Shown piece by piece: positions 16,221 through 62,707 of a DNA stretch of 64,000 bases. Location of the stretch: assembly GCA_045576855.1 (NCBI GenBank), contig JAZNHG010000035.1, forward strand, positions 1,855-65,854. Reading direction: 5' to 3'. Made by a program: the position numbers and the translations under genes. Below the pieces are notes generated by a model. It worked only from the letters and a program-made list of their open reading frames with translations. It did no database searches and was not told the DNA's origin. This stretch comes from Bacteroidales bacterium (lineage in GTDB: Bacteria > Bacteroidota > Bacteroidia > Bacteroidales > P3). Each line of letters starts with the position of its first letter. Within the stretch, counting starts at the first letter, position 1.

Positions 16221-16268
16221 GATGGTGGTAGGATGGTGGTAGGTTGATGGTAGGATGGTGGTAGGATG
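16221..16268. repeat. 11-bp tandem array GATGGTGGTAG, about 4.4 units
   Basis: Read directly: gatggtggtag gatggtggtag gttgatggtag gatggtggtag gatga. Confidence 0.9.
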
Positions 16269-16283
16269 ATACCCTTCGGGTAG

Positions 16284-16322
16284 GTGTTCAGTGCTCAGTG
16301 TTCAGTGTTCGGCATTCAGTGG
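16284..16322. repeat. 7-bp tandem array GTGTTCA, about 5 units
   Basis: gtgttca gtgctca gtgttca gtgttcg gcattca gtgg. Confidence 0.9.
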
Positions 16323-16357
16323 AAAAGAGGTTGCTGTACGTATCCTACGGTCTTGAT

Positions 16358-16401
16358 ACTCAGTGTTTGACACTGAATGCTTAACACTTGGCACTGAATA
16401 A
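16358..16401. repeat. 7/14-bp periodic segment rich in CACTGAA, the inverted partner of the GTGTTCA array
   Basis: actcagt gtttgac actgaat gcttaac acttggc actgaat. Positions 16371-16380 (cactgaatgc) are the exact complement of 16312-16321 (gcattcagtg). Confidence 0.8.
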
Positions 16402-16417
16402 AGCTCGTTTCCGACTC

Positions 16418-16452
16418 TCAATTCTCAATTTTCAATTCTCAATTTTCAATTC
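16418..16452. repeat. 7-bp tandem array alternating TCAATTC/TCAATTT, 5 units
   Basis: tcaattc tcaattt tcaattc tcaattt tcaattc. Confidence 0.9.
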
Positions 16453-16622
16453 AACCCCTCTCAGCATGTTTTCGAATTTTGCAAGTAAAATATTGTTAAA
16501 CTTTCTTAAATCACATCATAAAAGACTTGTAATTACATCTACATCAGCACGTAAGCAGGTTTTACCGAGAGACAAGAAAGACACCCCCCAAACCGACGGC
16601 TTGGCGAAGGAAGAGAATAAAT

Positions 16623-16653
16623 TTTGCGGAATCAAAAAAAAAGTGTATTTTTG
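16623..16653 (+). promoter_or_regulatory. candidate promoter of the OMP gene (-33 TTTG, 19-bp spacer, -7 TATTTTTG)
   Basis: attTTTGcggaatcaaaaaaaaagtgTATTTTTGcac. The -7 box ends 25 nt before ATG 16679. Confidence 0.5.
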
Positions 16654-16678
16654 CACTTTGCAAATAAAGATAAAAAAG

Positions 16679-17470
16679 ATGAAAAAAACAGCATTTCTCA
16701 TTGCCGCAGTGGCACTTATGACGGCTGCCAACGCGCAAGTGGTAATCGGCATTCAGGGCGGCTACCACTGGCAGAAGAACACCCAATCGTATGATACAGA
16801 GAATACGCGTCTGGCCACCAACTGGCTGGGCGGACTGCAGCTGGGCTACAATATCACGCCCGAATTGTATGTCGGTGTGAGCGGCAACTACCAAGACTTT
16901 GCTACGGACACCTTCTACCTGCACAGCATCATCGACTTCGAGGGCATGATGCGCGAGGTCGACAACCGCGAGCTGAAGGGTCACCACACGGGCTGGACCG
17001 TGGGCCCGCAGGTGAAATGGGAATTTCTGAAATACGGCAACATGCACTTCCACCTGCTGCTGCAGGGCACCGTGTCGTCCACGGGCTACACCACCCTGGA
17101 CGAGACCTTCGACACCCCCTTCCGCAACAACGGCGAGCATGTGACCAAACCGGTGCTGGCCGACAGCCTGCACACCTTCACCTGGGGCGTCAGCCTGCGG
17201 CCCACGCTGACCTATGCCTTCTCGCGCCACCTGAGCGCCGAGCTGAGCCTCGACTTCCTGAGCATCGGCTACATCGACCACCGCGCCACCGACGACCACA
17301 TGCAGCCCAAGTATGACAACGAAGGCCGCCTGGAATACCTCGACGGCGACATAGTCTACACCACCACCACCCACCGCACCCGCACCATCTATGCCGGCCT
17401 GAACACGCTGATGGAGACCTTGCGCTGGGAGAGCCCCCTGCTGCGTCTGGGCTTCAACTGGACCTTTTAG
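16679..17470 (+). CDS. outer-membrane beta-barrel protein (porin/OmpW-like family)
   Basis: Start taken at MKKTAFLIAAVALMTAANAQ (signal peptide). The protein has alternating hydrophobic strand patterns and a C-terminal LRLGFNWTF. The upstream part of ORF 16388-17470 runs through repeat DNA. Confidence 0.55.
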   Translation: MKKTAFLIAAVALMTAANAQVVIGIQGGYHWQKNTQSYDTENTRLATNWLGGLQLGYNITPELYVGVSGNYQDFATDTFYLHSIIDFEGMMREVDNRELKGHHTGWTVGPQVKWEFLKYGNMHFHLLLQGTVSSTGYTTLDETFDTPFRNNGEHVTKPVLADSLHTFTWGVSLRPTLTYAFSRHLSAELSLDFLSIGYIDHRATDDHMQPKYDNEGRLEYLDGDIVYTTTTHRTRTIYAGLNTLMETLRWESPLLRLGFNWTF

Positions 17471-17620
17471 GGAGTGGAGAGTGGAGAGTGGAGAGTGGAG
17501 AGTGGAGAGTGGAGAGTGGAGAGCGGAGAGCGGAGAGTGGAGAGTGGAGAGTGGAGAGTGGAGAGTGGAGAGCGGAGAGTGGAGAGTGGAGAGTGGAGAG
17601 TGGAGAGTGGAGAGCGGAGA
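17471..17620. repeat. 7-bp tandem array GGAGAGT, 21 units with 4 GGAGAGC variants
   Basis: Units in register from 17474 to 17620. The array begins 1 nt after the OMP stop codon (TAG 17468-17470). Confidence 0.95.
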
Positions 17621-17650
17621 GCAGTTGCCGTACCCGGATACTGCTCACTG

Positions 17651-17720
17651 CCAACTATTAACTGCCAACTGCCAACTGTCAACTGCCAACTGCCAACTGC
17701 CAACTGCCAACTGCCAACTG
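17651..17720. repeat. 7-bp tandem array CCAACTG (CAACTGC), 10 units
   Basis: ccaacta ttaactg ccaactg ccaactg tcaactg ccaactg x5. The array ends 18 nt before ATG 17739. Confidence 0.95.
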
Positions 17721-17738
17721 AACATTAAACCATAAACC

Positions 17739-19328
17739 ATGTACACCAAAGAACAAGGACTGTATATAGCCCACTGCGACGAGGGAGCCCTCGCACTGGT
17801 GGGCCGCATGGCCAACCGCCACGGACTGATAGCCGGCGCCACCGGCACCGGCAAGACCGTCACCCTGCAGGTGATGGCCGAGACCTTCTGCCAAGCCGGC
17901 GTGCCCTGTTTCATGGCCGACATGAAGGGCGACCTCAGCGGCATCAGCCAGGCCGGACAGATGAGCTCGTTCATTGAGAAACGCAAGGACGCCTTCGGGG
18001 TCCCCAACCCCGAATTCCAGCCCTGTCCCGTGCGCTTCTACGACGTGTTGGGCGAACAGGGCCACCCCATCCGCGCCACCGTGAGCCAGATGGGTCCGCA
18101 GCTGCTCAGCCGCCTGCTGGGCCTGAACGAGACGCAGGACGGCGTGCTGAACATCGTGTTCCGCATCGCCGACGAGAACGGCCTGCTGCTGCTCGACATG
18201 AAGGACCTGCGCGCCATGCTCGATTTCGTGGCCCGCCACGCCAAAGAATACACCACCCAGTACGGCAACATCAGCACCGCCACCGTGGGTGCCATACAGC
18301 GCTCGCTGCTGCAACTCGACGCCCAAGGGGCCGACCGCTTCTTCGGCGAGCCCTCGTTCGACATATACGACCTGCTGCAGACCGATGGCGGCAAGGGCAT
18401 CATGAATGTGCTGGCGGCCGACAAGCTGATGCTGCAGCCCAAACTCTACAGCACCTTCCTGCTCTGGCTCCTCTCGGAACTCTACTCCACCCTGCCCGAG
18501 GTGGGCGACCAGGAGCTGCCGCGTCTGGTCTTCTTCTTCGACGAAGCCCACATGCTCTTCGAAGACACCTCCAAGGCCCTCGTCGACAAGATAGAGCAGG
18601 TGATACGCCTCATCCGCTCCAAAGGCGTGGGTATCTACTTCGTCACCCAGAGCCCGACCGACATACCGGAGAACATACTGGGCCAGCTGGGCAACCGCGT
18701 GCAGCATGCCCTGCGCGCCTATACCCCCAAGGACCAGCGCGCCGTGCGCACCGCCGCCGACACCTTCCGCCCCAATCCGAAATTCAAGACCGACGAGGCC
18801 ATCATGAACCTCGAGACCGGCGAGGCCCTGGTGAGCCTGCTCGACGAGAAAGGCGCCCCCGGCATGGTGCAGCGCGCCAAGATTCTCTTTCCCCTGAGCC
18901 AGATTGGCGCCATCACCGACAGCCAGCGCGCCGACATCATACGCGGCAGCCGCCTGTACGGCAAATACGACAAGATGGTGGATCGCGAGAGCGCCTTCGA
19001 GGTGCTGCTCCGGCAAGCCGAAGCCGCCGAAGCCGAAGAGGCCGAGCAAGCCGTGGTCGAGCAGCCGGAAGCCCCGGTAGCCACCGCCGACAAGCAGCAG
19101 CCCGCCAGAGAGAAAAAGAAGAGCGGTCTGGCCAGCAAGATACTGAAGTCGGTGCTCACCGCCGCCACCGCTACCCTGGCCACCGCCGCCGGTACCGCCG
19201 TCAGCAATGCCGTCAGCGGCAAGAAGACCAAGAGCAAGACCTCCGTCGGCCAGAAGATAGTCAAGAACACCACCAGCAGCGTGACCCGCACCCTGACGCG
19301 CGACATACTGGGCAACCTGCTGAAATAA
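17739..19328 (+). CDS. HerA-like ATPase, DUF853 (YjgR) family
   Basis: 529 aa. Walker A GATGTGKT, Walker [10 protein letters not shown], and a low-complexity Lys/Ala/Thr-rich C-terminal tail typical of DUF853 proteins. Confidence 0.8.
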
Positions 19329-19345
19329 GCGTAGCATCGTGGACT

Positions 19346-20602
19346 GTGGTTAGCTATCAGAAACATACGCTCGGCAACGGGCTGACGGTGGTCACCCACG
19401 AATCATGGGACACACCGCTAGCCACAGTCAACCTACTCTACAATGTAGGCTCGCGCGACGAGGACCCGCAGCGCACCGGATTCGCCCACCTCTTCGAGCA
19501 TCTGATGTTCGGCGGCACGCCGCAGGTGCCCGATTTCGACAGTGTGCTCAGCGCCGTCGGCGGCGACGACAATGCCTTCACCAACTGCGACTATACCAAT
19601 TATTATATCACCCTGCCCGCCGAATCACTGGCGCTGGCCCTCAACCTCGAGGCCGACCGCATGGCACACCTCGACATCAGCGACCGCACCCTCGGAGTGC
19701 AGCAACGTGTGGTGACCGAGGAATACCACCAGCGCTACATGAACCACCCCTACGGCGACATCTGGCTCCTGCTGCGTCCGCTCTGCTACACCGTGCACCC
19801 CTACCGATGGCCTACCATAGGTGCCGATATCAAGCATGTGAGCCAGGCCACACTCGACGACGTGCGCGCCTTCCACAGCCGCTACTACCGTCCCGACAAC
19901 GCCATTCTCGCCATCGCCGCCCCGCTGAAGCACAGCGAGATGTTGCACAAGGCCGAAGAGGCATGGGAGAGCCCGCAGGCGTCCGGCACCGCGCAGTCCA
20001 CAGCCACATGCCGCACCCTCGCCTACCCCTCCGAACCCGAACAGACAGCCAACCGCCTGCTGCGCGTGCAGCGCGACGTGCCGGCCTCGGCAGTCTATCT
20101 GGCTTACCCTATGGGTGACCGCTTCTCGCCCCACTTCCGCGCCTGCGACCTCATCAGCGACATACTGGGCAATGGCACCTCCAGCCGCCTGCACCGCCGC
20201 CTGGTGGTGGAGCAACAACTATTCACCGAAGCCGATGCCTGCATCAGCGGCGAGGCCGGTCCCGGACTGTTGGTACTCAACGGCAAGCTGCGCGACGGCG
20301 TCAGTCCCGACCAAGCCGCCGATGCACTGCGCTGCGAAGCGATGCTGCTGACCGAGAATCCTGTGTCGGACTATGAGTTGCAGAAGGTACAGAACAAGTA
20401 CGAGAACACCTTCGTGCTTTCGCAATACAAAGTTTCCGACCGTGCACTCTCGCTCTGCCACTACACATGGGTGGGCGATACCGATCTGGTGAACAGGGAG
20501 CCGGAGGAATACCGCCGGGTGACACCCACACTGCTGATGGAGGCTGCCCGGGCCGTGCTCGACCCCAAGAAAGAGAACTGCCTATATTACGAAAGAATAT
20601 GA
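19346..20602 (+). CDS. M16-family (pitrilysin/insulinase-like) zinc peptidase
   Basis: 418 aa with the inverted zinc motif HLFEHLMFGGT. Confidence 0.85.
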   Translation: MVSYQKHTLGNGLTVVTHESWDTPLATVNLLYNVGSRDEDPQRTGFAHLFEHLMFGGTPQVPDFDSVLSAVGGDDNAFTNCDYTNYYITLPAESLALALNLEADRMAHLDISDRTLGVQQRVVTEEYHQRYMNHPYGDIWLLLRPLCYTVHPYRWPTIGADIKHVSQATLDDVRAFHSRYYRPDNAILAIAAPLKHSEMLHKAEEAWESPQASGTAQSTATCRTLAYPSEPEQTANRLLRVQRDVPASAVYLAYPMGDRFSPHFRACDLISDILGNGTSSRLHRRLVVEQQLFTEADACISGEAGPGLLVLNGKLRDGVSPDQAADALRCEAMLLTENPVSDYELQKVQNKYENTFVLSQYKVSDRALSLCHYTWVGDTDLVNREPEEYRRVTPTLLMEAARAVLDPKKENCLYYERI

Positions 20603-21576: not shown

Positions 21577-21591
21577 TAAAGCACCACACAT

Positions 21592-23985: not shown

Positions 23986-23989
23986 AGCC

Positions 23990-24991: not shown

Positions 24992-25929
24992 CCCGCATTC
25001 TCATCTCCGACCGCACACATCCCATACTGGAAGAACGCCTGCGCCAGGCGGGCTACCACGTCAGCGTAGAGCCCGACCACGACTACCGTTCGCTGATGGC
25101 GGCCGCGCAAGGATACGACGGGCTGGTGGTGCGGAGCAAGGTGAATATAGACCGTGCCTTCATCGACGCCGTACCCACACTGCGATGCATAGGCCGCGTG
25201 GGGGCCGGCATGGAGACCATAGACACCGACTATGCCGAGAGCCGTGGCATCCGCTGCCTGAACAGTCCCGAGGGCAACCGCGACGCCGTAGGCGAGCATG
25301 CCGTGGGTCTGCTCCTGGCCCTGCTCGACAATATAGCCCGAGCCGACGCCCAGGTGCGCCGCGGACAGTGGCTGCGCGAGGCCAACCGCGGCCTCGAGCT
25401 GGGCAGCCTCACCGTGGGCATCATTGGCTACGGCAACATGGGGCGTGCCTTCGCCCAACGCCTCGGCGGCTTCGGCTGCAGGGTAATCTACTACGACAAG
25501 TACCTTGTAAGCCCTATAAGTCCTATAAGTGCCCCCATCCGCGTCAGCCTCGGGCAACTCCAGCAAGAGGCCGATGTGGTCAGCTTCCATGTGCCGCTGA
25601 CCGACGAGACGCGCCACTACCTGGACACCGCCTTCATAGCCGCTATGGCCAAGCCCTTCTTCCTGGTCAACACCGCGCGCGGTGCCGTGGTCGACACCGA
25701 GGCACTGGCCGAGGGGCTGCGCGACGGACGCATACGGGGCGCCGCACTCGACGTGCTGGAATACGAGAATATGCAGGCCGACAGCCTGGGCGACGTGCCG
25801 CCAGCCATGCAATACCTCATGCAAAGCGACCGCACGGTGCTCACCCCGCACGTGGCGGGATGGACCGCAGAATCGAAATACAAACTGGCCGCCGTGCTGG
25901 CCGATAAGATAATTGCGACACTGAGATGA
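24988..25929 (+). CDS. D-isomer-specific 2-hydroxyacid dehydrogenase family (PGDH-like)
   Basis: 313 aa. NAD-binding GIIGYGNMG, followed by VNTARG..VD and HV.G.T. ATGA overlap with the upstream gene. Confidence 0.85.
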   Translation: MTRILISDRTHPILEERLRQAGYHVSVEPDHDYRSLMAAAQGYDGLVVRSKVNIDRAFIDAVPTLRCIGRVGAGMETIDTDYAESRGIRCLNSPEGNRDAVGEHAVGLLLALLDNIARADAQVRRGQWLREANRGLELGSLTVGIIGYGNMGRAFAQRLGGFGCRVIYYDKYLVSPISPISAPIRVSLGQLQQEADVVSFHVPLTDETRHYLDTAFIAAMAKPFFLVNTARGAVVDTEALAEGLRDGRIRGAALDVLEYENMQADSLGDVPPAMQYLMQSDRTVLTPHVAGWTAESKYKLAAVLADKIIATLR

Positions 25930-27099: not shown

Positions 27100-27112
27100 G
27101 AGCAAAAAAAAA

Positions 27113-27144
27113 TTTGGTCAGTTCGCGAAAAGTTAGTAATTTTG
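27113..27144 (+). promoter_or_regulatory. promoter of tRNA-Phe (-33 TTTG, 20-bp spacer, -7 TAATTTTG)
   Basis: aaTTTGgtcagttcgcgaaaagttagTAATTTTGcacccg. The -7 box ends 20 nt before the tRNA 5' end. Confidence 0.6.
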
Positions 27145-27164
27145 CACCCGAAATCGAGAGAGAT

Positions 27165-27237: not shown

Positions 27238-27240
27238 CCC

Positions 27241-27271
27241 AGAGAGACCTGACAGGGTCTCTCTTTTTTTT
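27241..27271 (+). terminator. intrinsic terminator after tRNA-Phe
   Basis: 9-bp stem agagagacc/ggtctctct with a 6-nt loop, followed by a T-run of 7-8. Confidence 0.8.
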
Positions 27272-27410
27272 GCCCCAGCGGCCGACACCATCCGCCATTC
27301 GCGCCGCCTACACCCCCACCCCGCCCTGCATACCCCGAGCCGACCGACAGCCATCGCCGTCCCACCGGTTCAACATCCACCAGTCAAACAGCCTCCCGAA
27401 ATGTTAAATA

Positions 27411-27465
27411 GGTAGGATGGTGGTAGGATGGTGGTAGGTTGATGGTACGTTGGTGGTAGGATGAC
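27411..27465. repeat. 11-bp tandem array GGTAGGATGGT, 5 units
   Basis: ggtaggatggt ggtaggatggt ggtaggttgat ggtacgttggt ggtaggatgac. Confidence 0.9.
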
Positions 27466-27503
27466 CCTAATTAGGGCGGAGGGTAGAAGGCGGAGGTTGG
27501 AGC

Positions 27504-27622
27504 GATGAATGATGAATGATAAATGATGAATATCAACTGACTACCAACTGTCAACTGTCAACTGCCAACTGCCAACTCTCAACTCTCCATTCTCAATTCT
27601 CAATTCTCAATTTTCAATTCCC
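27504..27622. repeat. continuous 7-bp register of 17 units whose sequence drifts along the array
   Basis: gatgaat gatgaat gataaat gatgaat atcaact gactacc aactgtc aactgtc aactgcc aactgcc aactctc aactctc cattctc aattctc aattctc aattttc aattccc. Confidence 0.9.
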
Positions 27623-27825
27623 ATCCTCTCAGTGTGCATCTGGATTTTGCAAGTGCAAAAATGATAAAAAATGTTAAACCTCCTCTATGCACCAGTCGGC
27701 ACGGGGTAGGGCAGACGTGGTGGACAGCGCCGTCCCCACGCCCCAAGCGGCCGTGTCCGGCCGGCAGCAAAGGCGAAAAAAGACGAAGTACCGGAAACAT
27801 GATGCGTTTGCCCGGCCTGTGGCTT

Positions 27826-28045
27826 GATTGCGGCGCGGCATATCTGGTGCATGTTATTGAAAGGAAGGCCCTACGGGCCAGATTGCGGCGCGGCGTACGG
27901 GGTGCTTGCTATTGAGAGAAAGGCCCTACGGGCCAGAATGCGGCGTGGCGTACGGGGTGCTTGCTATTGAGAGAAAGGCCCTACGGGCCAGAATGCGGCG
28001 CGGCATATCTGGTGCATGTTATTGAAAGAAAGGCCCTACGGGCCA
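27826..28045 (+). repeat. four contiguous 55-bp direct repeats in the order A-B-B'-A', each ending in the hairpin GGCCC-TAC-GGGCC
   Basis: Units 27826-27880, 27881-27935, 27936-27990 and 27991-28045. Units 1 and 4 are near-identical (..CATATCTGGTGCATGTTATTGAAAG..). Units 2 and 3 are near-identical (..CGTACGGGGTGCTTGCTATTGAGAG..). Confidence 0.9.
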
Positions 28046-32786: not shown

Positions 32787-32853
32787 ACCTGTCGGCAGGC
32801 ACTTCCGGCGGTGCAACGCTCTGCCAAACAGTACAGAAACACGACACTAAACC

Positions 32854-32887
32854 CTTACCAACACCTACCGTGGTAGGTGTTGGTAAG
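32854..32887. repeat. perfect 16-bp inverted repeat (hairpin) 68 nt after the kinase stop
   Basis: cttaccaacacctacc-gt-ggtaggtgttggtaag. The right arm runs straight into the 11-mer array. There is no U-tract. Confidence 0.85.
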
Positions 32888-32934
32888 GAGTTGGTAAGGA
32901 GTTGGTAAGGAGTTGGCAAGGAGATGGTAGGTTG
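32869..32934. repeat. 11-bp tandem array TTGGTAAGGAG, about 6 units including diverged end units
   Basis: gtggtaggtgt ttggtaaggag ttggtaaggag ttggtaaggag ttggcaaggag atggtaggttg. Confidence 0.9.
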
Positions 32935-33050
32935 GGAGCCTGACGTTCAGCGGGTTACAAGGGCCGTTTTTCGCGTCACAACAGGTGGGGGTATTTTTTC
33001 CAACATGCCGCCACACGGGACCAGACACCGCTGCCCTGACGGCTGCAAGT
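32924..33050 (+). repeat. dispersed element, copy 1 (inverted homologue at about 41255-41395)
   Basis: GATGGTAGGTTGGGAGCCTGACGTTCAGCGGGTTACAAGGGCCGTTTTTCGCGTCACAACAGGTGGGGG compared with the reverse complement of 41326-41394, GATGGTAGGTTGAGGGCTTGAGGTTCAGTGGGTTACAAGGGCGTTTTTTCGCGTCACAACAGGCAGGGG. Confidence 0.8.
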
Positions 33051-38462: not shown

Positions 38463-38528
38463 AGAATTGGAAATTGAAATCTATCAATCAACTAGTTGCG
38501 GACTAAAAAATTTTCAATTTCCAATCCC
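38463..38528. repeat. inverted repeat built from TCAATTT-type heptamers (16-bp arms with 1 mismatch, 32-nt loop)
   Basis: gaattggaaattgaaa (38465-38480) against tttcaatttccaatcc (38513-38528). It lies between the TBDR stop and the tRNA-Gln promoter. Confidence 0.8.
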
Positions 38529-41254: not shown

Positions 41255-41395
41255 TTCTTGCAAAAAATATTTCAAATTTTCGCACCGGCAGCCAAACCCG
41301 CACAATCGCCATTTTCCCCCAATTGCCCCTGCCTGTTGTGACGCGAAAAAACGCCCTTGTAACCCACTGAACCTCAAGCCCTCAACCTACCATCT
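41255..41395 (-). repeat. dispersed element, copy 2 (inverted homologue of 32924-33050)
   Basis: See the copy 1 alignment. This copy lies between the divergent TBDR and OMP genes. Confidence 0.8.
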
Positions 41396-41440
41396 ACTTA
41401 CCAACGACTTACCAACGACTTACCAACGACTTACCAACAC
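41385..41440. repeat. 11-bp tandem array ACTTACCAACG, about 4-5 units (complement TTGGTAAGT..)
   Basis: acttaccaacg acttaccaacg acttaccaacg acttaccaaca, preceded by aacctaccatct. A partner aaggtgtt follows 17 nt later, allowing a hairpin with aacacctt. Confidence 0.9.
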
Positions 41441-41623
41441 CTTCTACAGTAGTAGTTGATAAGGTGTTAGCACGTATTTCGTCACCCGATGGAATGCCCT
41501 CTTCCTGACGGTGGCGCCGGGCACTCCACCCCCGGTGCGGAGGTGGACACAAACTTTTTTTCCACCGCGGGTGTAAGATTCGGCCACCTTCGTGCGACTT
41601 ATATACGACGAATCAAACCGACG

Positions 41624-42960: not shown

Positions 42961-44555
42961 GACAGCTTGAAGACGATGGGCAGGTGGTATTGCACGCGGA
43001 CGGCCTTGCCCTGGTTCCGTCCGGGCTTCCACTTGGGCATGGCCTCGACCACCCGCACGGCCTCCTCGTCGCAGCCGCCGCCGATGCCGCGCAGCACCTT
43101 GATATTGGAGAGCCGACCGTCGGCCTCCACCACGAAGGCCACATACACCCTGCCCTCGACGCCCTCTTCCTTGGCCTTCGCGGGATAGTGGATGTTCTCA
43201 CTCAGGAACTTGTACATAGCCTCCATTCCACCAGGGTACTCGGGCGTCTCTTCGACCACCTGGTACACCTCGTCCGACTGACCCATGACTATCCGCACGG
43301 GCTCCTTGGCAGCGTCCACCTCGACCACCCACAGCTTGATGACGGCATCGCCCTGTTGGTTCCCGTCCTGCCAGGCGGCGGCGAAGCACAGGGTGACATC
43401 GCCGTTGTCGGTCTTCACGGTGGTGGTGTGGTCAGTGGTGCCGCTGGAGTGTCCTCGCCGCAGTTCGCGGTCGACGGCCTGGATGACTTTCTTCTCATTG
43501 CGGCTCAGCACCTGGCCGTCGACCACCCCCCGCGAGGTCGGAAGCTGGTCGATCTCCCAGGCGCCGTAGCTGTGCTCGGCCCCTTCGCCCTTACAGTCCA
43601 CCCGCACTTCTTGCAGCGTCAGGCTAGCCTGGCTATGGATACTGTTGTAGCCTATGCCGCCGAACGGGAGCGGCTTGCCTCCGGTCCGGTGATAGGTCAC
43701 GGTCAGCAGGCATTCGCCCGTCTGCACCCCGGCAGGCTCGGCATTGGCCGTCCGGCAACCCACCATCATCAATACGACCACCAGCGGCAGGGCCGCCAGC
43801 GGCTTCCACGCGCCGAAGCGCGATTTCGTTTTGTTCATCATAACGATACGGTTTTTAAGGTTAATACTGTTGAAATTATGGGTGATATGGCCATATCCGA
43901 ATCCAGTGGCCTGCCGGTAGAGCAGGCGCAGATAGTCCTCCTTGGCGCAACGCGACAGCACCGCCGCGTCGGCCTGCCGCTCGTGGACGGCCAGCAAGTC
44001 GCGCAGCATCAGCCACGCGAAGGGGTTGAACCAGGCCACACAGCACAGCAGGCGCATCAAGAGCACATCCTCCGTATGGTGCAGCCGCACATGCTCGCGC
44101 TCGTGGGCCAGGATGCATTGCAGTTCGCCGTCGGCATAGTCCCCTTCGGGCAGCACAACGTGGCGGAAGAACGAGAACGGCCCGCCATAGCCGCGGCGCA
44201 CCATCCGGAGCGTCCGCGCCAGCTGCACCGTCAGCACCGCCAGGGAGAGCAGCACGCCCGCCAGGTATATTATGGTAGGGATGTGGCGTGCCGCTTCCGC
44301 AGCCGGCCGCGAGGCATCAGCCACCTCGACCGCAGGCAGGACACCACCCGTCCCCGCCCCGGCAGCCGTCAGGCCCATCCGCGACGGCAGCGAGAACTCC
44401 GGCAGCGGCACCAACGGATAGACCAGGCTGAACACCAAGGAGATAATCAAATAGAAGCGCGAGAGCTGCAACCACCCGTCGCGCCGCAACAGCAACCGGT
44501 AGAGCCCCCAGAAGAGCCCCGCCGCCACCACAGAGAAAAGAACCCAGTGCACCAT
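42957..44555 (-). CDS. BlaR1/MecR1-type M56 metallopeptidase sensor fused to a C-terminal TonB domain
   Basis: 532 aa. TM segments, HEXXH (ILAHEREHVRLHH), an uncharacterised middle domain of about 170 aa, and the TonB_C signature PEYPGG..A...FL..NI.YP..A...G..G.V.V.FVV..DG.... Confidence 0.85.
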   Translation of the reverse strand: MVHWVLFSVVAAGLFWGLYRLLLRRDGWLQLSRFYLIISLVFSLVYPLVPLPEFSLPSRMGLTAAGAGTGGVLPAVEVADASRPAAEAARHIPTIIYLAGVLLSLAVLTVQLARTLRMVRRGYGGPFSFFRHVVLPEGDYADGELQCILAHEREHVRLHHTEDVLLMRLLCCVAWFNPFAWLMLRDLLAVHERQADAAVLSRCAKEDYLRLLYRQATGFGYGHITHNFNSINLKNRIVMMNKTKSRFGAWKPLAALPLVVVLMMVGCRTANAEPAGVQTGECLLTVTYHRTGGKPLPFGGIGYNSIHSQASLTLQEVRVDCKGEGAEHSYGAWEIDQLPTSRGVVDGQVLSRNEKKVIQAVDRELRRGHSSGTTDHTTTVKTDNGDVTLCFAAAWQDGNQQGDAVIKLWVVEVDAAKEPVRIVMGQSDEVYQVVEETPEYPGGMEAMYKFLSENIHYPAKAKEEGVEGRVYVAFVVEADGRLSNIKVLRGIGGGCDEEAVRVVEAMPKWKPGRNQGKAVRVQYHLPIVFKLS

Positions 44556-44596
44556 TTTAACTTTTAACTTTTAACTTTTAACTCTTAACTTTCAAT
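44555..44596. repeat. 7-bp tandem array TTTTAAC (GTTAAAA on the coding strand), about 6 units, filling the blaI-blaR1 junction
   Basis: ttttaac x4, then tcttaac and tttcaat. It spans from the last base of the blaR1-like ATG through the 29-nt spacer into the last blaI-like codons. Confidence 0.9.
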
Positions 44597-44950: not shown

Positions 44951-45228
44951 AATTATATCGTATTGTCATTAATTATATTTCTAGTTACATAACGGCATAA
45001 TGCATTACGTATTGTATGATAGTGATATTTTTTTCAAAAAAAAATTTGTATTGGGCGGAGTTTTGAAGCAAGAAAAAAAACATCGTGCACGACATAACCG
45101 CCTTACTGACATGGGGTCGCACCATCGAGAGAAAGGTGTCGAATGGGGCAAAAATACAGGCAAATGTGGGTCATAACCCCATAAACATCAGTATTTCTAC
45201 ACAATTCATCCGACAAAAAACCGACTGC

Positions 45229-45280
45229 AGTCGGACTTCAGTCGGACATGAGTCGGACATGAGTCGGACATGAATCGGTG
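45229..45280. repeat. 11-bp tandem array AGTCGGACATG, about 4.7 units
   Basis: agtcggacttc agtcggacatg agtcggacatg agtcggacatg aatcggtg, preceded by the palindrome ccgactgcagtcgg. Confidence 0.9.
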
Positions 45281-49565: not shown

Positions 49566-49832
49566 TTATTTGAGACAATCGGCAACGTAGGGCATCAGGG
49601 CGATGTGACGGGCGCGCTTGATGGCCTGCGAGACCTTTTTCTGGTACTTGTTCGAGGTGCCGGTGATGCGGCGGGGCAGAATCTTGCCCTGCTCGTTGAC
49701 GAACTTCAGCAAGAAGTCGGCATCCTTGTAGTCAATATATTTAATACCGAGCTTTTTGAAGCGGCAGTATTTCTTACGCTGAGTCTCCACGGCAATGGGA
49801 GTCAGATATTTGATTTCGCTTTCGTTAGCCAT
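49566..49832 (-). CDS. rpsR: 30S ribosomal protein S18
   Basis: 88 aa with the motifs IDYKD...L..F....GKILPRR.TG......Q......IKRAR..ALL. Confidence 0.93.
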
Positions 49833-49870
49833 AACAAATTCTTAATTCTTGATTCTAAACTCTTAATTAA

Positions 49871-50298: not shown

Positions 50299-50315
50299 TA
50301 TCTGTTTCGTTTTCG

Positions 50316-50388
<73 letters not shown>

Positions 50389-50405
50389 GGCTTTTGCGGT
50401 TTGTG

Positions 50406-50479
50406 TCGGGGTGAGAAGACTCGAACTTCCGGCCTCCACGTCCCGAACGTGGCGCGCTAGCCAACTGCGCTACACCCCG
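50406..50479 (-). tRNA. tRNA-Pro (anticodon CGG)
   Basis: Hand fold: CGGGGTG/CACCCCG acceptor, CCACG-TTCGGGA-CGTGG anticodon arm. Confidence 0.9.
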
Positions 50480-50487
50480 CGATGTTG

Positions 50488-50560
50488 TGTCCTGGCAGGG
50501 ATTCGAACCCTGGACCCATTGATTAAGAGTCAATTGCTCTACCAGCTGAGCTACCAAGAC
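50488..50560 (-). tRNA. tRNA-Lys (anticodon CTT)
   Basis: Hand fold: GTCTTGG/CCAGGAC acceptor, ATTGA-CTCTTAA-TCAAT anticodon arm. Confidence 0.9.
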
Positions 50561-50672
50561 ATTTATTCTCTTTCGCTTGTGTTTTACGACAACCTCATCG
50601 GCCTTTCTTCGAAGGCGTATTGAACATGGACTTTGACATTGTCGTGCATTATTTCAAGTTACTCTTTCTTCT

Positions 50673-50748
<76 letters not shown>

Positions 50749-50761
50749 ATCATGTCAATCG

Positions 50762-50844
50762 TACTCCGGGTGGGACTTGAACCCACACGCCCTTGCGGGC
50801 AAGGGATTTTAAGTCCCTCGTGTCTACCATTCCACCACCAGAGC
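50762..50844 (-). tRNA. tRNA-Leu (anticodon TAA), long variable arm
   Basis: Hand fold: AGGGA-CTTAAAA-TCCCT anticodon arm, variable arm TGCCCGCAAGGGCG. The acceptor needs G-U pairs, so the ends are within about 1 nt. Confidence 0.85.
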
Positions 50845-50866
50845 CTCTCCTCTGATTTTGGAGTCC

Positions 50867-50942
<76 letters not shown>

Positions 50943-53640: not shown

Positions 53641-53700
53641 GTCTTTATCTTTATGTCTATCAAGCGTGTAAATTAGATACAATCACGTTACATTTTGTTG

Positions 53701-53708
53701 CAAAGTTA
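53701..53708 (-). promoter_or_regulatory. -7 box TAACTTTG upstream of mutS
   Basis: Exact TAnnTTTG match on the minus strand about 60 nt upstream of ATG 53640. No well-spaced -33 TTTG was seen. Confidence 0.35.
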
Positions 53709-53750
53709 CACAAATTTTCTTAATCGCGCATCGTTATTACAAAACTAAAA

Positions 53751-55655: not shown

Positions 55656-55760
55656 GAGTACAACAAATAGAGTCGTAGTGTGACAAAAGAAAACGGTCAA
55701 AGGCTACTGAACACGTCAGCGCCTTTAACCGTCAGGCTTATTACCGCCAAACAGGTTGTA

Positions 55761-56447: not shown

Positions 56448-56565
56448 ATTTTTGACTTTTAATTATTTATTCTACATTTTACAGGATTTTCAATCCCTCT
56501 TTTCGCACCGCTAAAATACGAAAAAAAACTGAATTACCAACAAGAAAATGTGAAAAACCCATTTT

Positions 56566-59500: not shown

Positions 59501-59901
59501 TGGTGCAACACTGCCGAGCGCACCATCTCGGCCATCCAGCGCAAATCGCTCTCGTCCAGCGGACGCCGCTGGTAACAGGGCTGCTGGTTCAGCGCTTCGA
59601 GCAGCGGGGCTCCCATGCGCGACCACTCGGGGTCGGCACCGTAGCGGGCCATCTGCTCCAGATAGTCCATGATACGGCCCTTCATCTCGCCTGCAGCCTT
59701 GTTGGTGAAGGTGATGGCCAGTATGCCGCGGAAGCGGGTCCGCAGCGCACGACGGAAGTCCTCGTTCTGCCGGTCGAACGGCATGCCCGGCACCGTCATG
59801 GCCAGCTTCAGATACACCTTCACCAGGGTGAACGTCTTGCCGCTGCCGGCGGCAGCACGACATATAACAAACGGATTCAGTGTATTCTGCGCATTATCCA
59901 T
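56566..59901 (-). CDS. UvrD/PcrA-type helicase fused to a C-terminal PD-(D/E)XK nuclease (AddA/RecB-like)
   Basis: Start taken at MDNAQNTLNPFVICRAAAGSGKTFTLV (Walker A), preceded by a TACCTTTG -7 box. Motifs FLIDEFQDTS, TIHKAKGLE, and a C-terminal CRPDRVV...VVDFKTG nuclease motif. Confidence 0.85.
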   Translation of the reverse strand: MDNAQNTLNPFVICRAAAGSGKTFTLVKVYLKLAMTVPGMPFDRQNEDFRRALRTRFRGILAITFTNKAAGEMKGRIMDYLEQMARYGADPEWSRMGAPLLEALNQQPCYQRRPLDESDLRWMAEMVRSAVLHHFSDLSVCTIDSFMHRIVRTFAHDLNRPVNFEVMIDQEEMVNQAVSQLMSLVGTPGHEELTEVMRAFSESRMEDSKSYRVEGALTSLAGQLFREDTEPFLSALSEMKLSDFVELHKKMTQENRAFEQKVHACGSAVMTLLREAGVDEADCAGGGRGYYGFFRSLSTGEPRPLTATVVKAFEAGKLYSAKCPVQQQAALDGMAGALQQRYEEARELLGVADVTSYTEGGALRDYNTRAVLLKNLYSMALLNELAEQLRLYSRENDVVHLSEFNRMINAIVTEQPAPFIYERLGNRYHHFLIDEFQDTSVLQWHNLVPLLENGVSQRMESLVVGDGKQAIYRFRQGDVRQFVALPRVDGMPLHGQTLALPGNYSFDPLDTNYRTASSVVNFNNGFFSWLMEREPFASNPLAQQIYVGSRDKEGHAELWQQLPAGKVPAVGHVGVSFVDSDDSDAVGECIRQTIVRLVTKQGYRQSDIMVLGRSKRELDYVSTYLQGHPGELRIEVSSSESFFLVRSHAVMAVVAALRLLADPSDRVAAADLMQRMVNLGLAENLHTETYGTEGPIDVARILRDEHRGFDFRPDELAALDLYDCCEALIRELHLDGIDTAYLGSFLSRVAAFVQRQHGGVADFLKWFDDNASADAGDVRHKQLSAASPEGVDAVRLLTIHKAKGLEAPVVICPFGAPDTHGFSLWVNLDGQLATVGEGRLPAAFVELSRKSMSRFDSVRDAEKRLSEVDQLNVLYVALTRPKEQLFVVCPTPKKSASGELSYSALIQQYIDEKKPDMGDAGFCHAFCQTDEDARRNEVSLNRLSFAEWIKKVQVASAAERALSPMQEASVRLGNMAHDLLSRVRHADDVENAVVKLANEEKLDDEMRTQLGELARNVVRHPDSERFFRPEYEAKTECDLCDAEGVCRPDRVVITPDETWVVDFKTGRDQGEEHDRQVLRYCRAMVEMGYPRVSGWLVYLLPDIRVREVIKC

Positions 59902-60013
59902 AGCGAGCGTTTTGAGTGCAAAGGTACACATTTTTCCCGAAACACACAAGTAGTCGCCGCTACAACTGCCGCAATAATTGCCCCACATTGCGCATGGCTG
60001 TCCGGCACATTTC

Positions 60014-60068
60014 AACCATCGTTTAACCATCGTTCTACCATCCATGATGGTCGAACAATGGTAGAACG
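60014..60068. repeat. 11-bp periodic segment of 5 units containing a perfect 11-bp inverted repeat, in the ACCATC/GATGGT family
   Basis: aaccatcgttt aaccatcgttc taccatccatg atggtcgaaca atggtagaacg. cgttctaccat (60031-60041) is the complement of atggtagaacg (60058-60068). Confidence 0.85.
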
Positions 60069-60255
60069 ATAGACGTACAACAGTCGAAAAGAGTGCGGAT
60101 GCACCAAGCTGTATGACGGCAAACCGGAGCCAAACGCCACCGAAACGACCACCAAACGGCGCGCCTGTGGCGCGGCCCTGCCGCCTCACCCCCCTGCCGA
60201 CAGCCGCCCGGCAAAGCGGACCGGCATCGGAAAAATCCCGGAACCGCACTAAATA

Positions 60256-60287
60256 ATTTGATACAATAATATTTTTTCGTATCTTTG
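60256..60287 (+). promoter_or_regulatory. candidate promoter of the mutase small-subunit operon (-33 TTTG, 20-bp spacer, -7 TATCTTTG)
   Basis: aaTTTGatacaataatattttttcgTATCTTTGc. The -7 box ends 36 nt before ATG 60324. Confidence 0.5.
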
Positions 60288-60323
60288 CTTTTTCAAGACG
60301 AAAAGAACAAACGATACAATATA

Positions 60324-62189
60324 ATGGAAAACAACAAATTATTCAGCGAATTCCCGCCCGTTTCGACCGAAAAATGGGAAGAGGTAATCAACAAAGACCT
60401 CAAGGGAGCCGACTACGACAAGAAACTGGTATGGCACACCATCGAAGGCTTCAACGTGCGCCCCTACTATCGAGCCGAGAACCTCGAAGGGCTGGACTAT
60501 CTGGAGTCGAACCCCGGCGAGAAGCCCTACACCCGCGGCCACCAGAAGGGCGGCAACGAGTGGGAGGTGCGCCAGGACATTCACGTGCCCGACATGGCCG
60601 AAGCCAACCGCATAGCCCTCGATGCCGTGGAGCGCGGTGCCACCGCCCTCGGCCTCTGCGCCAAGCAGGTCTCGTCCGTCGACGACTTGGCAGTCCTGCT
60701 CAAAGGCATCTATATCAATGCCGTGAGCATCAACTTCATGTGCTCGCAGGACTACCTGCAGCTCCTCAAACTCTATGTTGAATATGCCCGTCGCGAAGGC
60801 TACGACACCAAGGAACTCCGCGGCTCTACCGACTTCGACCCCTTCCGCTATGCGCTGCATCATGGACGGTTCCACCGTGGCGAGGAAGGCGACCTGCAGA
60901 TGGCCCGCCAGCTGGTAGAATATGCCCACGAGGAGCTGCCCGGCTTCCGCGTGCTGACGGTGAACAGCGTCGTGCTGCACAATGCCGGCGCCAACATCGT
61001 CCAGGAGCTCGGCTTCGGCCTGGCCGCCGCCAACGAGCTGGTTGCTCGCCTGACCGATATGGGCTGCAAGATGGAGCACGCCGGCCGCTCTATCGTGCTC
61101 AACGTGGGTGTGGGCAGCACCTACTTCATGGAGATTGCCAAGATACGCGCCGCCCGTCTGCTCTGGAGCAAGATAGTGGAACAGTACAAGCCCGAGTGCG
61201 ACTGCCCCTACAAACTCTTCATCAACGCCACCACCAGCCGCTGGAACCAGTCGGTCTACGACCCCTACGTCAACATGCTGCGCAGCACCACCGAAGCCAT
61301 GTCCTCGGCCGTGGCCGGTGCCGACTCCATATCGGTGCTGCCCTTCGACAACGCCTACAAGCAAGCCGACGACTTCGGCTACCGCATTGCCCGCAACCAG
61401 CAGTTGCTCCTCAAGGAGGAGAGCTACCTCGACAAGATTGTCGACCCCGCCGCCGGCAGTTACTATATCGAAAACCTCACCGACAAGATAGCCCAGGGCG
61501 CCTGGCAGCACTTCCTGAAAGTGGAAGAAGCCGGCGGCTTCTGCAAGGCCATCCGCCAGGGTCTGGTGCAGGACGAGGTGATGGAGACCGCCCGCAAGCG
61601 CGACCTCGACATCGCCACCCGCAAGACCACCATCCTCGGCACCAACCAGTATCCCAACCTGCTGGAGCAGATGGGCGACAAGGTGGGCGCAGAAACCCAC
61701 AAGGGCTGCTGTTGCCACTGCGCCGAGCAGGGCAACGAGGTGAAGGTGCTGCACGACTATCGCGGCGCCGAGCCCTTCGAGCAGCTGCGTCTGCAGACCG
61801 AGCATGCCGCTCATCGCCCCAAGGTGTTCCTGCTCACCTACGGCAACCTCACCATGCGCAAGGCTCGCTCCGGCTTCGCCACCAACTTCTTCGGCGTGGC
61901 CGGCTATGAGATTATCGACAACCCCGGCTTCGCCACCCCCGAGGAGGGCGCCAAGGCCGCCCTCGAAAGCGGCGCCGAGGTGGTGGTGCTCTGCTCCAGC
62001 GACGACGAATATGCCGAGCTGACCGAGCCCGCCTGCAAGCTCCTCAAGGGCAAGGTGAAGAGCATCGTCCTCGCCGGCTTCCCCAAGGAGATGGTGGACA
62101 CCTACCGCGGCTATGGCGTCGACGAGTTCATCCACGTCAAGACAAACGCCCTGCAGTGTTTACAGGAATTCCAGAAAAAACTTCTGTAA
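60324..62189 (+). CDS. mutA: methylmalonyl-CoA mutase small (beta) subunit
   Basis: Start taken at MENNKLFSEFPP.S.E.W. It has a mutase barrel-like region and a C-terminal Rossmann-like VVVLCSSDDEY without the DxHxxG cobalamin-ligand motif, as expected for the non-catalytic subunit. Confidence 0.8.
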   Translation: MENNKLFSEFPPVSTEKWEEVINKDLKGADYDKKLVWHTIEGFNVRPYYRAENLEGLDYLESNPGEKPYTRGHQKGGNEWEVRQDIHVPDMAEANRIALDAVERGATALGLCAKQVSSVDDLAVLLKGIYINAVSINFMCSQDYLQLLKLYVEYARREGYDTKELRGSTDFDPFRYALHHGRFHRGEEGDLQMARQLVEYAHEELPGFRVLTVNSVVLHNAGANIVQELGFGLAAANELVARLTDMGCKMEHAGRSIVLNVGVGSTYFMEIAKIRAARLLWSKIVEQYKPECDCPYKLFINATTSRWNQSVYDPYVNMLRSTTEAMSSAVAGADSISVLPFDNAYKQADDFGYRIARNQQLLLKEESYLDKIVDPAAGSYYIENLTDKIAQGAWQHFLKVEEAGGFCKAIRQGLVQDEVMETARKRDLDIATRKTTILGTNQYPNLLEQMGDKVGAETHKGCCCHCAEQGNEVKVLHDYRGAEPFEQLRLQTEHAAHRPKVFLLTYGNLTMRKARSGFATNFFGVAGYEIIDNPGFATPEEGAKAALESGAEVVVLCSSDDEYAELTEPACKLLKGKVKSIVLAGFPKEMVDTYRGYGVDEFIHVKTNALQCLQEFQKKLL

Positions 62190-62199
62190 ACACATGCAA

Positions 62200-62232
62200 G
62201 TGTTCAGTGTTTAGTGTTCAGTGTTCAGTTTA
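62200..62232 (+). repeat. 7-bp tandem array GTGTTCA, 4 units plus a partial one
   Basis: gtgttca gtgttta gtgttca gtgttca gttta. It starts 11 nt after the mutA stop and ends 19 nt before ATG 62251. Confidence 0.95.
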
Positions 62233-62250
62233 GCATAGCGTAAAACAATC

Positions 62251-62622
62251 ATGGGAGAAAGCGTATTAAGCGAAAAGAGCTTTGATTTTGCTTTATCAAT
62301 CGTGAACACCTATAAGACATTACGCGAGCAGGGGGAATATGTATTGTCGAAACAGATGCTACGTTCGGGGACAAGTATAGGCGCAAACGTAGCTGAAGCG
62401 AATATGGCACAGACCCTTGCTGATTTCTCTTCCAAAATGTATATTGCCCTGAAAGAAGCAAACGAAACGTCATACTGGCTAAAACTACTGGGAAGGGCCG
62501 GATATTTGAACCAAGCCGAATCCAACGAACTGACAGAAAAATGTCATGAGTTATTGAGAATGCTAATAGCAACCACAAAGAAAACTGCACCGCGTCAGCA
62601 AAAACCAAACACTGAACACTAA
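62251..62622 (+). CDS. four-helix-bundle protein of the 23S rRNA intervening-sequence protein / Avd-like family (TIGR02436/PF05635-like)
   Basis: 123 aa. S..FA..I......L.......L..Q.LRSGTSIGANV.EA.......DF..K..IALKEA.ET.YWL.LL is the hallmark pattern of this family. Confidence 0.8.
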   Translation: MGESVLSEKSFDFALSIVNTYKTLREQGEYVLSKQMLRSGTSIGANVAEANMAQTLADFSSKMYIALKEANETSYWLKLLGRAGYLNQAESNELTEKCHELLRMLIATTKKTAPRQQKPNTEH

Positions 62623-62705
62623 ACACTGAACACTGAACACTGAACACTGAACACTGAACACTGAACACTAAACACTAAACACTGAACACTAAACACTGAA
62701 CACTA
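62608..62705 (+). repeat. 7-bp tandem array AACACTG/AACACTA, 14 units, the reverse complement of the upstream GTGTTCA array
   Basis: Units in register from 62608 to 62705. The array starts inside the last 4 codons of the four-helix-bundle ORF and ends 2 nt before the TTG start of the next gene. Confidence 0.95.
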
Positions 62706-62707
62706 AA

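Follow-up and report, generated by a model that had tools for sequence, protein, structure and literature searches.

What are the short tandem arrays, most of them with units of 7 or 11 nt, that stand between the genes of a rumen bacterium? We address this question for a 64-kb stretch of contig JAZNHG010000035.1 (the window, always meant at its full length), part of the chromosome of an uncultured Bacteroidales bacterium from the rumen. We find that one pair of inverted heptamer arrays encloses a gene for a four-helix-bundle protein of the 23S rRNA intervening-sequence protein (IVP, "S23p") family, and that genes of this family are often bracketed in the same way across metagenomes. The explanation that we favour, at slightly better than even confidence, is that the heptamer arrays, whose length changes by slippage, are arms or relics of IVP hairpin cassettes, that the 11-mer arrays are independent, amplified hairpin arms, and that both are probably selfish or neutral DNA.

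An IVP gene between inverted heptamer arrays

The intact cassette (Table 1) lies in the intercistronic space between co-directional mutase (MM_CoA_mutase) and LptF/G (LptF_LptG) genes, and not in a 23S rRNA gene (helix 25 or 45). On folding, the (AGTGTTC) and (GAACACT) arms pair into a ~35-bp stem around the IVP gene (z = -5.8), and the last codons of the gene come from the downstream array. A first-pass annotation of the window had found no clear terminal inverted repeats; several of the arrays are in fact inverted-repeat arms, and the gene enclosed by this pair had gone unrecognised. The Bacteroidota -7 promoter motif, TAnnTTTG, is absent from both gaps flanking the IVP gene. Comparison with the homologue in L083 (L-numbers denote comparison loci or contigs from other assemblies) gives 57 synonymous and 32 non-synonymous codon changes, and sequence comparison indicates that the gene is under purifying selection. 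Its family, PF05635, is one that we take to include Avd, the accessory protein of diversity-generating retroelements, presumably a pentameric four-helix bundle that binds nucleic acid. No reverse transcriptase with template and variable repeats is found beside the IVP gene or in the syntenic loci.

The mutase-LptF junction of relatives records gain, loss and exchange of the cassette. A full cassette is present in the window, L081, L083-L086 and L089, and the upstream arm is kept in L081, L083, L086 and L181. In L181-L188, the same arms surround a 53-nt remnant, translated LKEANESLYWIK...TEH*, that matches the IVP hidden Markov model at 1.4e-5 and consists of a conserved IVP motif fused to the IVP tail, i.e., an internally deleted pseudogene; L171-L180 have a clean 27-nt gap without an array. 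These states show the decay of a cassette into a gene-less heptamer hairpin at this junction, and thus that gene-less heptamer hairpins can arise from IVP cassettes. The IVP genes of the window and L081 are 98.1% identical in DNA sequence, with three synonymous differences in 124 codons, against 85-87% for the flanking genes; the L083 gene is 69% identical, far below its flanks, which are as close as those of L081. The near-identical tract shared with L081 (~62100-62820, 95-100%) runs ~100 nt into each flanking gene, and because it overruns the arms it points to recent import by homologous recombination. Arm-mediated transposition of the tract was considered and rejected on the same ground. 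The downstream arm has 14 units in the window, 4 in L081, L083 and L086 and at least 9 in L082, and the same-species contigs L169 and L170 break inside it.

We scanned metagenomes with an IVP alignment and obtained 80 loci with 46-59% identity and a G+C content ranging from 25% to 64%; adding 3 syntenic relatives and removing 2 loci with too short flanks gives a test set of 81 IVP genes. A gene was scored as bracketed when the 120 nt upstream formed a significant inverted repeat with its 3' end or the downstream 120 nt. By this measure, the bracketed share is 57 of 81 for the IVP genes and 3 of 185 for the other genes of these loci. The arm period is 7 in 24 of the bracketed loci, 14 in 18 and 8 in 2, with none clear in 13, and at least 38 different units are used; since the arms remain complementary across so many units, they co-vary. 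IVP genes are co-directional with both neighbours in 38 of 51 cases, the gaps having medians of 36 and 54 nt. The sense-strand composition of the upstream arms in the 57 loci (among L081-L168) is 38% A, 32% T, 23% G and 7% C, the downstream arms being correspondingly G-poor, and the solo heptamer arrays of the window have the same C-poor polarity relative to transcription. A symmetric DNA palindrome would not require such arm polarity. In the library that we searched, we find no paper that generalises this bracket layout of IVP genes. One of the loci, L161 (1838-4357), from an unrelated metagenome, again has an IVP cassette after a mutase-family gene, this mutase gene being only 33% identical to that of the window; the recurrence may be a coincidence or a preferred neighbourhood.

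Heptamer and 11-mer arrays of the window

Arrays were called with Tandem Repeats Finder and counted at three or more copies and a score of at least 40. At this threshold, the window holds eight period-7, five period-11 and one period-55 array, whereas 50 third-order Markov simulations of the window give 3 arrays in total over all periods, which excludes chance as the origin of the 13 period-7 and period-11 arrays. Overall, the program reports ten period-7 arrays, with up to 21.4 copies. Nearly all arrays listed in the first-pass annotation were recovered where it had placed them. The program misses two of its entries, 16358-16401 and 38463-38528, which are too degenerate or too short, but both emerge on folding as inverted arms (Table 1); the rpsF-rpsR heptamer array and the 55-bp tandem repeat had been missed. 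That only two periods occur holds for the short arrays of this window and fails as a rule for the genome, as a period-9 array is found in the same species beyond the window. All arrays lie, as claimed, in gaps of the gene map, with three overlaps confined to gene ends (the C-terminal tail of IVP, the BlaI stop and the BlaR start), and an array is present in ~8 of the 11 gaps that exceed 100 nt. Unit comparison confirms the common cores and units reported among the arrays, and a recurrent end motif, TTTCAATYCC, occurs 3 times against 0.18 expected. The arrays are, as proposed, non-coding, non-random and mutually related. They had also rightly been set apart from CRISPR, their units being 7 or 11 nt long and contiguous, as opposed to 23-47-nt repeats with unique spacers. 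CRISPR and insertion-sequence ends are both rejected on anatomy, and an assembly artefact is excluded by equivalent arrays in independent assemblies of relatives.

The same periods were surveyed in a lineage sample of 701 kb around the HerA genes of 80 related species (rumen Bacteroidales and Prevotella). Period 7 is dominant, with 45 of ~100 arrays, followed by period 9 with 11, period 11 with 8 and period 8 with 7. A crude map of open reading frames, which over-calls coding sequence, leaves ~9% of this sequence as non-coding, and at least 56% of the heptamer arrays lie there. Short-read contigs end inside arrays (L082, L169, L170) and scaffolds have N-gaps inside them (L173, L179). Arrays are probably under-represented and shortened in metagenome-assembled genomes, with the practical consequence that they are under-counted there because they break short-read assemblies.

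The remaining heptamer arrays of the window share units with one another and with IVP arms. The arms of the hairpin at 16284-16401 are 92-96% identical to those of the cassette, the units at 16416-16452 are exact matches to metagenome IVP-arm units, and the AATTGRA-type units at 38463-38528 belong to the commonest IVP-arm class. AGTGTTC, CAACTGC and CAATTCT each occur at two loci of the window, CAACTGC recurring at 27544-27584, and CAACTGY/CAATTYT units are common to 16416, 17647 and 27540-27620. In total, 4 of the 10 heptamer unit types in the window are exact metagenome IVP-arm units, against 3.5-8.6% expected per unit; this match is suggestive of descent from cassettes. Gene-less heptamer hairpins with loops of 8-70 nt are common in relatives. 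A further inverted pair seemed to be present in L036 and was discarded as a chance match inside a long gene. Not all arrays are structured: the fold of 27465-27625 has no significant structure (z = 0.2), and the BlaI-BlaR array is unstructured (z = +1.1).

Table 1. Tandem arrays, hairpins and the IVP gene in the window (positions in nt; TRF, array as called by Tandem Repeats Finder; z, folding score).
Feature	Positions	Strand	Remarks
Upstream arm of cassette, (AGTGTTC) x4.4	62199-62229	+	between mutase stop (62189) and IVP start codon (62251)
IVP gene, cassette loop	62251-62622	+	PF05635 1.7e-29; TIGR02436 5e-31; PDB 2RLD 9e-30
Downstream arm of cassette, (RAACACT) x13.9, reverse complement of upstream arm	62608-62704	+	ends 3 nt before LptF/G start
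Gene-less hairpin, (GTGTTCA) x5.4, ~36-nt loop, degenerate (TGAACAC)-type arm	16284-16401	+	z = -3.8; TRF 16284-16321, 5.4 copies
(CAATTCT/CAATTTT) x5.3, downstream-arm type	16416-16452	+	95% identical to 27582-27620
(GGAGAGT) x21.4, 96% matches	17472-17621	+	directly after stop of outer-membrane beta-barrel protein (OMP) gene
(CAACTGC) x10.6	17647-17720	+	ends 18 nt before HerA start
Composite tract: GGNGGAG-type, (GATGAAT) x4, CAACTGY > CAACTCT > CAATTCT > CAATTTT	27470-27620	+	split by TRF into 27504-27531 and 27540-27620
Short gene-less hairpin, AATTGRA-type arms	38463-38528	+	downstream of TonB-dependent receptor gene; z = -3.3
(GTTAAAA) x5.4	44555-44592	-	fills 29-nt BlaI-BlaR1 junction, overlaps BlaI stop and BlaR start
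(AAGAATT) x4.6	49837-49868	-	38-nt rpsF-rpsR gap
11-mer element: head GAAATGTTAAAATGCAAGGATGGTG, then (GGTAGGATGGT) x4.5	16201-16268	+	between two divergent promoter motifs; array 16219-16268
Second copy of GAAATGTTAAAATGCAAGGATGGTG-head element, x4.8	27396-27463	+	downstream of tRNA-Phe terminator; array 27411-27463
16-17-bp hairpin, (TTGGTAAGGAG) x5.5, conserved ~55-nt non-repeat flank	32845-32985	+	z = -3.8; array 32871-32929
Second copy of hairpin/array/flank element, inverted, unit TTGGTAAGTCG	41332-41465	-	array 41388-41438
(CATGTCCGACT) x4.5	45221-45278	-	array 45229-45278; last unit is 5' arm of terminator-like hairpin
Palindromic arrays, (TTCAACCATCG) x3 facing ~2 inverted units	60011-60067	+	between UvrD-like/mutase promoter motifs; z = -4.1
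55-bp tandem repeat, x3.9, 88% matches	27829-28045		same 1.4-kb gap as 7- and 11-mer arrays

Promoters were mapped with TAnnTTTG, a sigma-70 scan being unsuited to Bacteroidota. The motif is not found in the gaps 17471-17738, 44556-44584, 49831-49870, 62190-62250 and 62623-62707, and no terminator-like site is seen between the OMP and HerA genes; with neither signal where scanned, the arrays in these five gaps very probably lie inside operon transcripts. In the divergent gaps 16028-16679 and 59893-60323, the arrays stand between two outward-facing promoter motifs and are therefore not transcribed from those promoters. The proposal that the arrays are part of mRNAs thus survives for operon-internal gaps without a promoter motif and falls for these two divergent gaps: arrays occupy gaps of every kind, transcribed or not.

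The 11-mers stand apart as a family of their own, unconnected with IVP. A GATGGTAG/TTGGTAAG core is common to five of the six 11-mer arrays, and the usual layout is an array, a loop and one or more inverted units (the window, L001, L002, L004, L072, L083, L086 and L089). The elements at 16201 and 27396 are 91% identical over 69 nt (27396-27464), and a third copy with the same GAAATGTTAAAATGCAAGGATGGTG head is found in the same species (L169, 3117-3205); C-rich tracts upstream of the GGTAGGATGGT arrays pair weakly with the arrays (z = -1.3 and -1.9). Two loci carry the TTGGTAAG element, each with 55 nt of non-repeat flank, 41332-41465 having 86% identity to 32875-32985 over 111 nt; the unit differs consistently between these copies and is homogenised within each array, which points to concerted evolution. 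Terminator-like structures are part of two elements, a 17-pair stem on the minus strand at 32852-32889 and a hairpin, CCGACTGCAGTCGG followed by T6, at 45221-45234. The palindromic 11-mer array persists at the orthologous UvrD/mutase site of L083, L086 and L089, hence in at least four species, with related units that share a GTTCTW core. Between contigs of one species that encode an identical LptF (L171-L180), the 11-mer ATATGACGCCY is present in 2, 4 or 5 copies or in unresolved N-gaps.

In the UvrD/mutase gap of relatives, the arrays are flanked by C-rich and G-rich tracts (L083 330-470, L086 280-530, L089 1760-1990), and the whole gap folds as a nested hairpin, with z = -12.4 in L083 and -5.0 in L086. 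The motif AATGTTAAA is found 4 times in the window against 0.21 expected, at sites that include 16205, 27400 and 27670, and again in L169 (~3195). It bounds composite 11-mer/heptamer elements as a direct repeat and, in another species, stands as an inverted pair on either side of the 11-mer array (L171, ~775 and ~915); it could be an element end or a target-site duplication.

Two other repeats were observed. On the minus strand, each unit of the 55-bp tandem repeat has a GGCCCGTAGGGCC hairpin with a T-rich tail, so that four terminator-like hairpins follow one another, and no minus-strand gene is evident upstream of them. The 9-mer TAAGTCCTA is present as 2.6 copies inside a 2-hydroxyacid dehydrogenase gene (25508-25530), where it encodes SPISPIS, and as a 9.3-copy intercistronic array in L169 (1899-1982), 2 kb past the window end; L169 is of the same species, with an LptF 99% identical to that of the window. 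The presence of this unit in a gene and in a gap shows that a period-9 family exists, with one unit common to both.

The setting of the arrays is unremarkable. The window has a G+C content of ~57%, and its genes are ordinary housekeeping and envelope genes: uvrA, mutS, rpsF-rpsR-rplI, lspA, a methylmalonyl-CoA-mutase-type gene, lptF/G, a blaI/blaR1-like pair and TonB-dependent receptors. Pfam searches of its proteins recover type IX secretion signal domains, SusC-like receptors and DUF4249, and the HerA-like protein reaches at most 87% identity, with proteins encoded in metagenome-assembled genomes from the rumen, UBA3834 and RGIG10247 among them. Exact-sequence look-ups with the IVP, S6 and BlaI proteins of the window returned no match, and strain-level comparison was made through LptF homologues. 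An Rfam scan of the window at E <= 1 returned tRNAs only, with no known RNA family over any array or flank and no rRNA anywhere. There are eight tRNA genes, six of which are clustered on the minus strand at 50315-50942 (Thr, Pro, Lys, Gly, Leu, Gly, with tRNA-Gly(GCC) duplicated), in an array-free gap. A 2981-residue open reading frame at 7082-16027 contains a single fibronectin type III domain plus a CHU_C type IX secretion signal and otherwise has no family match.

Competing explanations

The explanation that we favour runs as follows. An intact cassette is an IVP gene enclosed by inverted tandem heptamers in a hairpin of the intervening-sequence (IVS) type; cassettes of this kind are widespread, with gain, loss and recombinational exchange. 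When the interior of the IVP gene is deleted, a gene-less heptamer hairpin is left, and further decay of such hairpins would leave solo heptamer arrays, which would lengthen and shorten by slippage, with the same units recurring at several sites per genome. Paired arms in operon transcripts would form long double-stranded RNA and, by analogy with their rRNA-borne relatives, for which experiments have demonstrated it, be cleaved by RNase III, while unpaired C-poor, A/U-rich arrays just upstream of start codons would be tolerated as unstructured leaders. The 11-mer arrays would arise by tandem amplification of one hairpin arm, in some cases terminator-like, in promoter-distal spacers, and would persist at orthologous sites, homogenised within the array and variable in copy number between strains. 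We infer on this basis that the other heptamer arrays of the window descend from cassettes and that both families are selfish or neutral DNA, with structural side-effects and without a dedicated regulatory function. RNase III processing of cassette stems may likewise be expected from the rRNA analogy; the RNase III stems suggested in the first-pass annotation offer the best parallel for the inverted pairs, and a strand-specific G.U test lends them no signal.

A number of observations weigh against descent from cassettes. There is one IVP gene in the 64 kb of the window and none in the 701 kb of HerA loci, yet the latter hold 45 heptamer arrays, three quarters of which lack an inverted partner, so that most arrays exist without a cassette. 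We looked for an IVP remnant in the gene-less hairpins of the window and detected none, and the 403-nt L006 spacer gave none either. GGAGAGT x21 and CAACTGC x10, the two largest arrays, lack complementarity to each other (joint fold, z = +0.8). The four units that match metagenome arms are related to one another, which weakens that statistic. Among the 57 cassette stems, G.U-type arm mismatches are sense-compatible in 57 cases and antisense-compatible in 54; this lack of an excess gives no sign of a stem selected at the RNA rather than the DNA level. Descent from cassettes is shown at one junction, and the reverse order, in which cassettes settled into or recruited pre-existing heptamer arrays, is equally possible. 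Nor does the cassette scheme account for the periods 7 and 11 as such.

The strongest competitor, which we consider possible but on balance unlikely, treats the arrays as ordinary long simple-sequence repeats (SSRs), made by in-place polymerase slippage with an intrinsic 7-nt preference, functionless and unrelated to cassettes. Since neither 7 nor 11 is a multiple of 3, arrays would survive only outside genes, and cassettes would merely occupy gaps that accumulate repeats. A check for copy-number polymorphism had been proposed, and copy number does differ between strains and between species, as slippage predicts. Arrays stand in every type of gap, whether transcribed or not; the OMP-HerA junction has other, unrelated heptamers in relatives, with units wholly different between species, and no array in one of them; and most heptamer arrays of relatives have neither an inverted partner nor an IVP gene nearby. 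A heptamer excess with a slippage explanation is also part of the literature, to the extent that Mrazek 2007 is cited in PMC4679880 and PMC4692102. In-place slippage leaves several things unaccounted for: identical units with non-repeat flanks at several loci of one genome, the inverted-pair architecture, and the bracketing of one gene family by co-varying arms at 57 of 81 versus 3 of 185 genes. Periods 4, 5, 8 and 10, equally out of frame, are rare or absent. If the arrays are merely neutral products of slippage, the window gives a known phenomenon a well-documented example in a new lineage.

A more ambitious version of cassette descent, to which we give somewhat less credence again, makes IVP cassettes an autonomous, cross-phylum selfish family in which IVP, the pentameric Avd-like four-helix bundle and sole protein of the element, would recognise heptamer stems and promote their maintenance, exchange or spread, gene-less hairpins and solo arrays, those of the window included, being non-autonomous derivatives. 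If true, this would explain the bacterial heptamer excess and the origin of rRNA intervening sequences, and the derivatives would perhaps include the heptamer repeats of Xanthomonas, Nostoc and Beggiatoaceae.

It is improbable, in our estimate, that the arrays are binding platforms, i.e., iterated sites for a sequence-specific RNA- or DNA-binding factor (pentameric IVP, or an S1- or Csp-type protein) that tunes the translation or transcription of neighbours. Their placement would suit such a role, since arrays end within a few nt of the start codons of HerA, BlaR, rpsR, IVP and LptF, and TAACTGA repeats likewise stand just upstream of start codons (PMC4679880). So would the recurrence of NNARTTG-type heptamers across unrelated metagenomes, the C-poor upstream arms (7% C) with their polarity relative to transcription, and the palindromic 11-mer array kept at the same promoter-distal site in several species. 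Against this, units are not conserved at orthologous sites, the OMP-HerA junction alone has from 0 to 21 units, and the neighbours are unrelated housekeeping genes.

Contingency (phase-variation) switches, another earlier suggestion, by which copy-number changes would turn surface-protein genes on and off, are very improbable: copy number is variable and some neighbours are outer-membrane or TonB-dependent proteins, but the TAnnTTTG map puts the arrays outside promoters, with none between promoter elements, inside a reading frame or within a gene body, arrays also occupy the rpsF-rpsR, mutase-LptF and UvrD-mutase gaps, and 7- and 11-nt units are unlike the usual switch design. Least credible of all are DNA-structure elements (G-quadruplexes, helically phased bends or cruciforms) organising promoter regions, even with GG-rich GGTAGGATGGT arrays, documented G-quadruplex-forming heptamer repeats in Xanthomonas and Nostoc (PMC4692102) and whole divergent gaps that are nested palindromes in L083, L086 and L089, as the G-quadruplex idea of the first-pass annotation applies to at most 2 of the 6 period-11 arrays, the G-rich ones, and most heptamers are not G-rich.

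Relation to known repeats and intervening sequences

The heptanucleotide repeats of Calothrix, which we take to be its short tandemly repeated repetitive (STRR) sequences, are one of several precedents for the window. The arrays had been thought to fit no described class; intergenic heptamer repeats are, however, described in Xanthomonas, Nostoc, Beggiatoaceae, Cyanobacteria and some Bacteroidetes (PMC4692102, PMC4679880). They include GGGAATC in Xanthomonas, GGGGAYT in Nostoc and the Calothrix repeats (PMC4692102), and heptamer "long SSRs" in general are covered by Mrazek 2007 as cited in PMC4692102 and PMC4679880. Like the Xanthomonas and Nostoc SSRs, the window arrays have period 7, are intergenic, including inside operons, and keep fixed positions with variable length and sequence; the Xanthomonas repeats also form frequent convergent pairs able to fold into stem-loops (PMC4692102). 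The heptamer-SSR traits seen in the window and its relatives are at least three head-to-tail copies, a period-7 excess, non-coding location, and variation in length and sequence at kept positions. Unlike the Xanthomonas and Nostoc repeats, the window arrays belong to another phylum, use many units and not one dominant unit, include an extra period-11 class and are linked to IVP.

TAACTGA direct repeats are known from Beggiatoaceae, Cyanobacteria and a few Bacteroidetes, and other heptamers from gaps of Gramella and Aequorivita (PMC4679880). TAACTGA repeats too lie immediately upstream of start codons, including those in ribosomal-protein operons, and the unit resembles CAACTGY; they differ in that a single unit was studied, mostly in 2-6 copies and with a proposed translational regulator, inverted pairs are rare and no associated gene is reported. 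IVP genes are not mentioned in PMC4692102 or PMC4679880.

MITEs (miniature inverted-repeat transposable elements) and mosaics of repetitive extragenic palindromes (REP/BIME) resemble the window elements in being short, non-coding, dispersed, hairpin-forming, modular with common flanks, and present or absent at orthologous sites. The MITE traits observed here are inverted arms, presence and absence at one junction, 2-3 dispersed copies per family in ~70 kb and, flanking one family, the AATGTTAAA direct repeat, a possible target-site duplication. In contrast, the window arms are tandem arrays and not unique terminal repeats, and no transposase or RAYT-type partner was identified. Diversity-generating retroelements with Avd differ again, as the neighbours of the window IVP gene are the mutase and LptF/G genes, with no reverse transcriptase, template or variable repeat adjoining.

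The closest counterpart of the cassette is the 23S rRNA IVS of Coxiella burnetii and Leptospira (PMC4990558). In C. burnetii, an S23p open reading frame lies inside a 28-bp stem of terminal inverted repeats, the start codon is preceded by GACAGAT heptamers, two or three depending on the strain, and RNase III cuts at the first repeat (PMC4990558). Both kinds of element have the same protein family in the loop, a ~28-35-bp stem of terminal inverted repeats and variable tandem heptamers directly 5' of the start codon, and both are promoter-less, dependent on a host transcript and regarded as selfish. They differ in position, the window cassette lying between protein genes of an operon and not in helix 45 of 23S rRNA; in their arms, both of which are multi-copy in the window, with up to 14 units; in the state of the reading frame, under purifying selection in the window and decaying in Coxiella; and in processing, RNase III excision being known for the rRNA element and the stem being predicted for the window.

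The window arrays are a new lineage's version of the known heptamer-repeat class. Three things are new: period-11 arrays as a second class, a cassette of the IVS type outside rRNA genes and evidence of heptamer hairpins left by cassettes. Two decades-old puzzles are thereby linked, the bacterial excess of intergenic 7-nt repeats and the nature of the "S23p" genes in rRNA intervening sequences: in this locus and in the metagenome survey, heptamers and S23p/IVP genes form one cassette architecture, far outside rRNA genes.

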